Source: Escherichia coli
GTDB taxonomy: Bacteria; Pseudomonadota; Gammaproteobacteria; Enterobacterales; Enterobacteriaceae
Assembly: GCF_024502345.1 (NCBI RefSeq)
Contig: NZ_JALDNN010000001.1
Length of the DNA: 64,000 bases
Strand: one strand, 5' to 3'
Positions 17,762 through 20,084 of this stretch are shown here, in pieces (the stretch's first letter is position 1; every line of letters begins with the position of its first letter). The translations under genes were made by a program, and so were the position numbers. A model generated the notes under the pieces. It worked only from the letters and a program-made list of their open reading frames with translations. It was not told where the DNA came from and made no database searches.

Positions 17762-18772
17762 ATGAAGGCTGCAGTTGTTACGAAGGATCATCATGTTGAC
17801 GTTACGGATAAAACACTGCGCTCACTGAAACATGGCGAAGCCCTGCTGAAAATGGAGTGTTGTGGTGTATGTCATACCGATCTTCATGTTAAGAATGGCG
17901 ATTTTGGTGACAAAACCGGCGTAATTCTGGGCCATGAAGGCATCGGTGTGGTGGCAGAAGTTGGCCCAGGTGTCACCTCATTAAAACCAGGCGATCGTGC
18001 CAGCGTGGCGTGGTTTTACGAAGGATGCGGTCATTGCGAATACTGTAACAGTGGTAACGAAACGCTCTGCCGTTCAGTTAAAAATGCCGGATACAGCGTT
18101 GATGGCGGGATGGCGGAAGAGTGCATCGTGGTCGCCGATTACGCGGTAAAAGTGCCAGATGGTCTGGACTCAGCGGCGGCCAGCAGCATTACCTGTGCGG
18201 GCGTCACCACCTACAAAGCCGTTAAACTGTCAAAAATTCGTCCCGGTCAGTGGATTGCTATCTACGGTCTTGGCGGTCTGGGTAACCTCGCCCTGCAATA
18301 CGCGAAGAATGTCTTTAACGCGAAAGTGATCGCCATTGATGTCAATGATGAGCAGTTAAAACTGGCAACCGAAATGGGTGCAGATTTAGCGATTAACTCA
18401 CGCACCGAAGACGCCGCCAAAATTGTGCAGGAGAAAACCGGTGGCGCTCACGCTGCGGTGGTAACAGCAGTTGCTAAAGCTGCGTTTAACTCGGCAGTTG
18501 ATGCTGTCCGTGCAGGCGGTCGTGTTGTGGCTGTCGGTCTGCCGCCGGAGTCTATGAGCCTGGATATCCCACGTCTTGTGCTGGATGGTATTGAAGTGGT
18601 CGGTTCGCTGGTCGGCACGCGCCAGGATTTAACTGAAGCCTTCCAGTTTGCCGCCGAAGGCAAAGTGGTGCCGAAAGTCGCCCTGCGTCCGTTAGCGGAC
18701 ATCAACACCATCTTTACCGAGATGGAAGAAGGCAAAATCCGTGGCCGTATGGTGATTGATTTCCGCCGCTAA
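17762..18772 (+). CDS. adhP: Zn-dependent alcohol dehydrogenase, propanol-preferring
   Basis: 336-aa [14 protein letters not shown]... with the zinc-ADH GHEGIG motif and the catalytic and structural Zn cysteines. Confidence 0.93.
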
Positions 18773-18917
18773 GAGGCCTTTGCTGCGACTGCCATGTTCG
18801 GGTCGCAGCATCGCACACTCTCCAACATGAAATGGCTAAATGGATTATTGTTGCGTAGGAAGGAACAATAATGATAGTGTTCCCAGAGAAGGAACGCTAC
18901 TGAGAGTAAAGACACTA

Positions 18918-19202
18918 ATGAAAATGGCCAATCATCCCCGCCCGGGGGACATTATTCAGGAATCACTGGACGAACTTAATGTCAGCCTGCGCGAGTTTGC
19001 CAGAGCAATGGAAATTGCTCCCTCAACGGCAAGCCGATTGCTGACAGGAAAAGCAGCTTTGACGCCAGAAATGGCAATTAAACTTTCCGTGGTGATCGGC
19101 AGTTCGCCGCAAATGTGGCTGAATCTGCAAAACGCCTGGAGTCTGGCAGAGGCAGAAAAAACGGTGGATGTGTCGCGATTACGCCGTCTGGTTACGCAAT
19201 AA
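18918..19202 (+). CDS. yddM: HigA-like XRE-family HTH protein (orphan antitoxin-like)
   Basis: 94-aa [45 protein letters not shown]... with an HTH motif. Confidence 0.8.
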
Positions 19203-19253
19203 AAAAATGGCACCTTATAAAGCGCCATTTGAAACTGATGACAAATGCAACAT

Positions 19254-19370
19254 TGCCCGATGCGCTACGCTTATCAGGCCTACACGTTCACTGCAATCTA
19301 TTGGATTTGAACGGTTTGTAGGCCGGATAAGGCGTTCACGCCGCATCCGGCATGAACAAAGCCTACGTTG
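19254..19370. repeat. BIME/REP cluster between yddM and fdnI
   Basis: Two inverted REP units (tgcccgatgcgctacgcttatcaggcctaca and gtaggccggataaggcgttcacgccgcatccggca). Confidence 0.75.
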
Positions 19371-19430
19371 TCTACAATATGAAAATGACGCCTTTTACAG
19401 CGCCATTTTCAGCTTAAAGTTCAAAAGAGA

Positions 19431-20084
19431 TTATATCCCTTCTTCACTCTCTTTTTTCGCTTCTGCCTTCTCGATTTCACGATACCAGCGCGGATGGTGT
19501 TTCTTCGCCCAGCGACGGCTCACCTTCCCTTCGATCATCCCTTTAATCGATCCTTTCACCCAGAATGCCATATACATATGGATCAGGATGGCGTGGATCA
19601 GGATGATACCCGCAGCCGCGTGGATCAGCAGGCTATAACGGACAACCTGCATCGGGAAGTACTGCGCAAAGTACGGACGCCAGATAATCACCCCGGTCAC
19701 CAGCAGCACGAAAATCATGCTCATGATCGACCAGAACATCATCTTTTGCCCGGCGTTGTACTTACCGACATCCGCCACTTTGTGCTCATTGCCTTTCAAT
19801 ACTTCGACAATGTTCAACAGCCACGGAATATCTTTCTTATCCGGGATGTTGTGATGCACAAAACGCACAAACATAAACATCAGCGCGACGAAAATCGCAA
19901 TGCCGAAGAACGGGTGCAAAATGCGTCCCATCTGCGGCGTACCGAAGGTTTGCGTCAGCCATTGCAGCGTCGGGAAGAAGAACGAAATCCCGGACAGCGC
20001 CACCAGGAAGAAGCAAATCACCACGGTCCAGTGACAGGCGCGATCAATAAATTTGGTGCGCACAATCATTTTCGACTTACTCAT
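19431..20084 (-). CDS. fdnI: Formate dehydrogenase-N gamma subunit (cytochrome b556)
   Basis: Start at [22 protein letters not shown] (217 aa); polytopic haem-binding membrane subunit. Confidence 0.92.

Follow-up and report, generated by a model that had tools for sequence, protein, structure and literature searches.

How a gene for a HigA-type antitoxin, yddM, comes to stand between adhP and fdnI of Escherichia coli with no toxin gene beside it is the question that this locus raises. We examined it in a 64-kb stretch of E. coli DNA (the window), in which the gene order of the segment is maeA-adhP-yddM-fdnI-fdnH-fdnG. An earlier, sequence-only reading of this DNA had put yddM about 145 bp past the adhP stop codon and just ahead of a REP cluster. 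The gap is 145 bp exactly (positions 18773-18917, adhP ending at 18772 and yddM starting at 18918), and the cluster was borne out by the recurrence of a 35-nt piece of it (19318-19352, a median of 38 occurrences per E. coli genome) and by a match, below threshold, to naRNA4, a REP-derived family, at 19321-19357. A search for RNA families across 18600-19600 gave only such sub-threshold, REP-related matches. The genes and hairpins of the interval are the following:

17762..18772, plus strand: adhP, alcohol dehydrogenase, the upstream neighbour (open reading frame and RefSeq annotation of matching loci).
18781..18810, plus strand: hairpin 3' of adhP with a 9-bp stem and a 12-nt loop (inverted repeat and alignments).
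18918..19202, plus strand: yddM, a 94-aa HigA-family antitoxin and XRE-HTH DNA-binding protein (open reading frame, family matches and PDB identity).
19197..19236, no strand given: terminator-like hairpin directly 3' of yddM, copy 1 of a duplicated hairpin; one analysis places the hairpin at 19205-19230.
19251..19357: REP cluster (BIME) between yddM and fdnI, absent in some alleles.
19375..19413: terminator hairpin, copy 2.
19431..20084, minus strand: fdnI, formate dehydrogenase-N gamma subunit, the convergent downstream neighbour (open reading frame and annotation).

The REP cluster is flanked by the two ~38-nt hairpin copies, and yddM and fdnI converge on copy 2. Alleles without the cluster (E20, M11, A12 and AVS0662) have that single hairpin only, so the cluster looks like an insertion accompanied by target duplication. 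Its presence is independent of that of the toxin gene described below; the K-12 cluster is longer, and some strains carry an IS200 at this site. Two further features of the yddM reading frame were noted. A 90-aa open reading frame runs antisense to it (18956-19228, minus strand) and has no Pfam match; in strain CFT073, an ORF annotated antisense to yddM (c1908) was reported to undergo sigma-S-dependent transcription in vitro (PMC3141248). An in-frame ATG at 18840 would add 26 residues to YddM and give a protein of 120 aa; this start falls within the operator region, the longer form does not improve the domain match, and the crystallised form has 94 aa.

The protein had been read as an XRE-HTH protein of the HigA type, and we found it to lie well inside that family. 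YddM scores 93.7 bits against the NCBIfam HigA equivalog TIGR02607 (cutoff 47.7), covering model positions 1-80 of 81, and 39 bits against Pfam HTH_3 (cutoff 23). It is identical in all 94 residues to the structures 2ICP/2ICT, deposited in the PDB as "antitoxin HigA" of E. coli CFT073 and named in a review as YddM from that strain (PMC3968373). Its next-best solved relatives are the HigA structures of the Rts1 HigB-HigA system of Proteus vulgaris (PDB 4MCT/4MCX and 6CHV; 4MCX, E 1e-18), with YddM aligning to P. vulgaris HigA over residues 7-87. The TIGR02607 score, the identity to 2ICP/2ICT and the matches to Rts1 HigA together make the classification secure. The dimer and its likeness to other HigA structures, with a compact all-helical HTH dimer fold, have been described (PMC6987408, PMC3968373), and both the structure of the protein and the orphan status of its gene have already been published. 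Among the PADLOC models of anti-phage defence, YddM gave weak matches at the level of the HTH only.

The reading had also held that no HigB/RelE-like toxin ORF lies on either side of yddM, and had proposed a tblastn search of both flanks for decayed remnants. Using the cognate HigB of another E. coli strain (see below) as query, a permissive tblastn against the whole window returned chance matches only (best E 0.5), none of them near yddM and none within 18773-18917 or 19203-19430. None of the five small open reading frames that flank yddM or run antisense to it matched a Pfam family. A decayed toxin remnant next to yddM is rejected on these two results, and the ORF list, the tblastn search and the Pfam scan all agree with the original claim. 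The window thus holds a HigA gene with no adjoining upstream gene for a HigB/RelE-fold toxin, that is, an incomplete type II toxin-antitoxin module.

Two other HigA-like systems of E. coli K-12 offer points of comparison. YbaQ (PDB 2EBY) is a second XRE-HTH HigA-like protein of K-12 without a toxin and matches YddM at E 6e-9, although it is encoded at another locus, is longer (113 aa) and is only distantly related; its PF05015-type partner, parE-1, is present in strain NRG857c and missing from K-12 and HS (PMC7232551). The K-12 HigB-HigA pair (YgjN-YgjM) has the family name and the toxin-first order in common with the yddM locus, but YgjM carries its HTH at the HigA C-terminus (PMC6987408) and is absent from the structure matches of YddM. 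The lost partner of YddM is not to be sought in this pair.

A partner gene is found at the same site in other strains. When positions 18500-19500 of the window were compared by megablast with 5426 complete E. coli genomes, adhP and yddM proved to be separated in some strains by an additional gene, here called higB, that carries the annotation "RelE/ParE family toxin". It occurs in 1331 of the 5426 genomes, in single copy every time, and lies directly 5' of yddM in all eight loci that were fetched. The toxin-less allele of the K-12/O157 type makes up ~75% of sequenced E. coli, and about a quarter keep the toxin. An intact coding sequence of 92 aa is present in NRG857C, A10, E20 and 746, where it ends in a stop codon that overlaps with the start of yddM (TGATGAAAATGG). 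The NRG857C product (WP_000605675; locus L004, 1201-1479) scores 63 bits against PF05015, the HigB-like toxin family (cutoff 27), has no match among the PADLOC models, and aligns from end to end with P. vulgaris HigB (4MCT_B, E 1e-31), with H54, D90, Y91 and H92 kept, the last three forming a C-terminal DYH. The YddM encoded beside this toxin has the same protein accession as that of K-12 and is identical to the YddM of the window.

This pair is known as parE-2/higA-2 (TA20), located by Bustamante and Vidal (2020, PMC7232551) at 1,526,229-1,526,791 of NRG857c, coordinates that are those of the NRG857C locus examined here. The pair belongs to the adherent-invasive strain NRG857c (AIEC) and the uropathogenic strain CFT073 (UPEC); the locus is the same, and the YddM is 100% identical to ours. 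These two strains keep the 92-aa toxin, whereas the window does not. The same source gives K-12 and HS as encoding the antitoxin only, so the central point is already known; as far as its accessible text extends, the deletion junction, the outgroup state and the divergent upstream region described below go beyond it.

The toxin gene has been damaged in several ways within E. coli. Four kinds of lesion were seen: two 1-nt frameshift deletions, the loss of 9 nt in frame (strain A3), and deletion of the whole gene. The two frameshifts lie five bases apart (columns 93 and 98 of alignment A4) and occur in different lineages (L001 1959-2236 and L002 1959-2236). The match length of 278 nt that marks the frameshifted alleles was found in 18 of 39 rows of an evenly spaced sample, which suggests, as an estimate only, that higB is a pseudogene in roughly half of the genomes that have it. 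The intact alleles differ mostly synonymously, with nine synonymous changes to one nonsynonymous relative to E. albertii, and by this substitution pattern HigB appears to be functional in the lineages that retain an intact gene.

We then considered which state is ancestral. A scan for YddM in one genome per species gave 41 loci, on which HigB, AdhP and FdnI were located by tblastn. Within Escherichia, higB abuts the yddM homologue in E. albertii, in Escherichia sp. MOD1-EC7003 and in two divergent genomes labelled E. coli; beyond it, the same holds for ~13 Citrobacter species and for genomes of Cedecea, Buttiauxella, Enterobacter, Pluralibacter, Chimaeribacter and Erwinia. The downstream neighbour is fdnI in Escherichia, in Citrobacter and in three more distant loci (L027, L029 and L031), the pair lying between adhP and fdnI in Escherichia and beside fdnI in Citrobacter. 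Even the distant YddM matches, of 30-40% identity, have a HigB-like open reading frame just 5'. These outgroup loci indicate that the toxin-bearing operon is ancestral at the site and the state of the window derived. The suggestion that yddM is a solitary antitoxin left behind after toxin loss therefore held up, as an intact higB precedes yddM elsewhere and the window is without exactly that open reading frame: the yddM of the window is a derived orphan antitoxin.

Some loci outside E. coli show independent decay or loss of higB next to an intact yddM homologue. In Citrobacter sp. FP75 (L012) the toxin gene is internally deleted, in C. portucalensis (L018) it gives two matches that overlap, which suggests a frameshift, and in Chimaeribacter californicus (L035) none was detectable by tblastn. 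The same scan returned a 214-nt contig labelled Clostridium sp. CMCC3677 (L039) that is 99% identical to the K-12-type upstream region and 5' end of yddM; E. coli DNA has almost certainly contaminated this assembly.

The elements between adhP and yddM that bear on the loss of the toxin gene and on the control of yddM are these:

18811..18917, plus strand: remnant hig promoter and 5'UTR region (alignments).
18851..18867: candidate operator O1, GTTGC-N7-GGAAC, an imperfect palindrome.
18862..18883, no strand given: 22-nt conserved core GGAACAATAATGATAGTGTTCC, identical at 21 of 22 positions to toxin-bearing alleles.
18879..18895: candidate operator O2, GTTCC-N7-GGAAC, with perfect palindromic half-sites.
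18918..18922, plus strand: deletion junction, the 5-nt repeat ATGAA (alignment A1).

In toxin-bearing alleles, ATGAA is common to the start of higB (taATGAAttt) and the start of yddM (tgATGAAaatgg). Alignment A1 shows the window and K-12 to be without exactly the higB open reading frame, with the junction falling in this repeat. The sequence immediately upstream is a different matter. The adhP hairpin marks, on the left, where toxin-less and toxin-bearing alleles begin to differ, and positions 18811-18917 are only ~60% identical to the NRG857C allele, compared with 93-100% for the adhP, yddM and fdnI flanks. Short-word blastn against the toxin-bearing allele aligned the 22-nt core and nothing else of the upstream region, and on this result the presence there of rearranged or inverted fragments of such an allele was rejected as well. 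The upstream sequence of E. albertii and the cryptic Escherichia is of the NRG857C type, leaving the K-12 type as the odd one out.

The two upstream types do not mix. A chimeric query joining K-12-type upstream sequence to higB found that combination in none of the 5426 E. coli genomes, and one with NRG857C (B2)-type sequence fused directly to yddM matched toxin-bearing genomes only: it was mostly covered in 1330 genomes, the same as the higB carriers, and among the matches listed it aligned as two segments, one on each side of higB. Linkage between upstream type and the presence or absence of the toxin is thus complete. Two scans of metagenome contigs for a higB start preceded by a 5'UTR of the K-12 type gave 0 matches, which is weak negative evidence because exact patterns were required. 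A blastn search for distant matches among plasmids, as a possible source of the upstream segment, returned matches of the E. coli chromosomal type only. As 105 bp upstream cannot be aligned outside the 22-nt core, a single deletion in any of the toxin-bearing alleles sampled would not, judged by these alignments, produce the toxin-less allele; its history involves at least two events or a donor outside the sample. The 105-bp segment would either have been donated by an unsampled, diverged hig locus joined at ATGAA or have been remodelled after the toxin was lost.

Variation also exists among toxin-less alleles. A second type (M11, A12 and H240) is ~88% identical to the window in the upstream segment. 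These three strains (L053, L054 and L050, respectively) have GTTCCTTCCTACGCAAC where the window has GTTGCGTAGGAAGGAAC at 18851-18867; as the one is the exact reverse complement of the other, candidate operator O1 has undergone a 17-bp inversion, and the loop of the adhP hairpin differs in this haplotype too. Strain 21AH006 (L055) has a 29-bp deletion between GAAGGAAC direct repeats (about 18860-18888 of the window) that removes the core palindrome and any -10 element and leaves one hybrid operator; its yddM is still intact, and a gene for an IS200/IS605 transposase lies 3' of it.

Conservation across genera, by contrast with the otherwise variable upstream sequence, is confined to the pattern GTTGCG - N - GGAACA - N10 - TGTTCC - N7 - GGAAC. 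Searched as a regular expression with one mismatch allowed per element, GGAACA-N9-10-TGTTCC-N7-GGAAC is present in the window and in 27 of 27 hig loci from Escherichia to Erwinia, and its end lies 11-14 nt ahead of the start of higB in most loci that have the toxin. We infer that the pattern represents two 17-bp palindromes, O1 and O2, serving as operators, by analogy with O1/O2 of the P. vulgaris promoter Phig (PMC12266136), each of which is bound by a HigA dimer via inverted repeats. At Phig, HigA alone robustly represses, and addition of the toxin brings no extra repression (PMC12266136); an orphan YddM could by the same token still shut down its own promoter and is most likely an autorepressor. 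A simple scan of 18700-19500 found no sigma-70 consensus promoter, and yddM is preceded by a weak Shine-Dalgarno sequence; support for expression from the yddM promoter comes from the K-12 literature and not from the sequence of the window.

The yddM gene itself has been maintained. It is matched in 5411 of 5426 E. coli genomes, and its open reading frame is annotated as intact in every toxin-less locus inspected. Across nine toxin-less alleles (the window, K-12, O157:H7, O78, M11, A12, 21AH006, THB42 and H240), eight segregating sites are synonymous and two nonsynonymous (P = 3e-4 under neutrality, 76% of sites being nonsynonymous), both replacements occurring in O157:H7 near the C-terminus. 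Compared with NRG857C there are nine silent and no replacement changes, and compared with E. albertii 13 silent and none. These substitution counts indicate that yddM is under purifying selection, a direction that is clear even though the sample is nine alleles and conserved sequence could have spread between lineages by recombination, which could also blur the assignment of alleles to lineages.

Taken together, yddM is very probably the antitoxin half of an ancestral higB-higA operon from which the toxin has been deleted, the operators and a selected yddM having been kept and YddM repressing its own gene. The ancestral operon would have been chromosomal, with the toxin gene first, and a close relative of Rts1 HigB-HigA; it would have occupied the adhP-fdnI interval in the ancestor of Escherichia and a place next to fdnI in Citrobacter. 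The likeness to Rts1 extends to the toxin-first order, the overlap of toxin stop and antitoxin start, the two candidate operators upstream and the full-length alignment of the lost toxin to P. vulgaris HigB. The yddM locus differs from Rts1 in being chromosomal and not plasmid-borne and in the absence of the toxin from the window, and its operator sequence (GTTCC-N7-GGAAC) and 28-bp spacing are deduced from sequence. In the K-12/O157-type lineage the whole 92-codon higB frame would have been lost and the hig promoter region joined to the yddM start at ATGAA. YddM most likely still dimerises, binds the two operator candidates and represses its own transcription. Since strains that retain HigB have this very protein as their antitoxin, YddM should also neutralise a re-acquired toxin, possibly providing anti-addiction or immunity as the benefit of keeping the gene, and some of its binding activity may be co-opted for other targets.

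Other histories would account for part of these data. The toxin-less arrangement could be ancestral and higB a later insertion before yddM in some lineages; the upstream region, wholly different between the allele classes and perfectly linked to the toxin, would fit the arrival of a promoter-plus-higB cassette. In every outgroup, however, from E. albertii through Citrobacter, Enterobacter and Erwinia to distant Proteobacteria, higB adjoins the HigA gene with the same overlap, the toxin-less upstream region keeps the hig operator set, and HigA-family genes normally arise as pairs, which leaves this rival close to refuted. Once the toxin loss is accepted, yddM might be a functionless, neutral relic that has simply not decayed so far. 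Toxin loss followed by slow decay of the antitoxin is the expected fate of chromosomal toxin-antitoxin loci, 21AH006 has lost the 29-bp promoter/operator core, and O157:H7 has its two C-terminal substitutions. We consider such neutrality improbable in view of the intact frame in all toxin-less loci inspected, the near-universal presence of the gene and the excess of synonymous over nonsynonymous sites reported above; moreover, the toxin-less haplotype is old enough for ~12% upstream divergence, yet the protein is unchanged.

A more serious contender, although still an unlikely one, is that YddM is no longer a functional antitoxin and has been domesticated as a transcription factor for other chromosomal genes, for which role it is kept; the earlier reading had named a regulator of something else as its alternative. 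In K-12, ChIP-exo gave binding sites for YddM, one of ten factors confirmed to bind DNA, together with a motif reported to be palindromic and a reconstructed regulon (Gao et al. 2018, PMC6237786). Elsewhere in the K-12 literature yddM figures as an orphan transcription factor, and genetic-interaction profiling ties it to stress regulators (PMC9283627). Purifying selection that continues without the toxin, and a promoter and 5'UTR remodelled in the toxin-less allele, would also suit such a role. The protein is nevertheless the same with and without the toxin and so bears no sequence sign of a new function; the ChIP-exo peaks of these factors are mostly intragenic in that study, which contains no case study of YddM; and the conserved operators at the yddM promoter point to autoregulation there as the primary site.

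For the upstream segment we offer a fuller scenario tentatively, and doubt that all of it will hold. The toxin-less allele would be a separate haplotype of long standing, in which only the operator core of the promoter and 5'UTR escaped replacement or remodelling. Selection would then be maintaining a YddM circuit that works on its own, whether for immunity to the HigB still present in a quarter of E. coli or because YddM has been co-opted for regulation. The 105 bp would have come from a hig locus outside the sample, and one illegitimate recombination at the ATGAA microhomology would have fused it to the native yddM.

The case of yddM opens no new question, its one loose end being the origin of the divergent promoter segment. 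It does provide a clean and datable example of the decay of a chromosomal toxin-antitoxin locus, in which the toxin goes first while the antitoxin and its operators persist under selection, and it displays several routes of toxin loss within one species: whole-gene deletion, two independent frameshifts and an in-frame deletion. For K-12, it means that the primary site of the "orphan transcription factor" YddM is probably its own promoter, and that its natural ligand is HigB, a protein absent from K-12.
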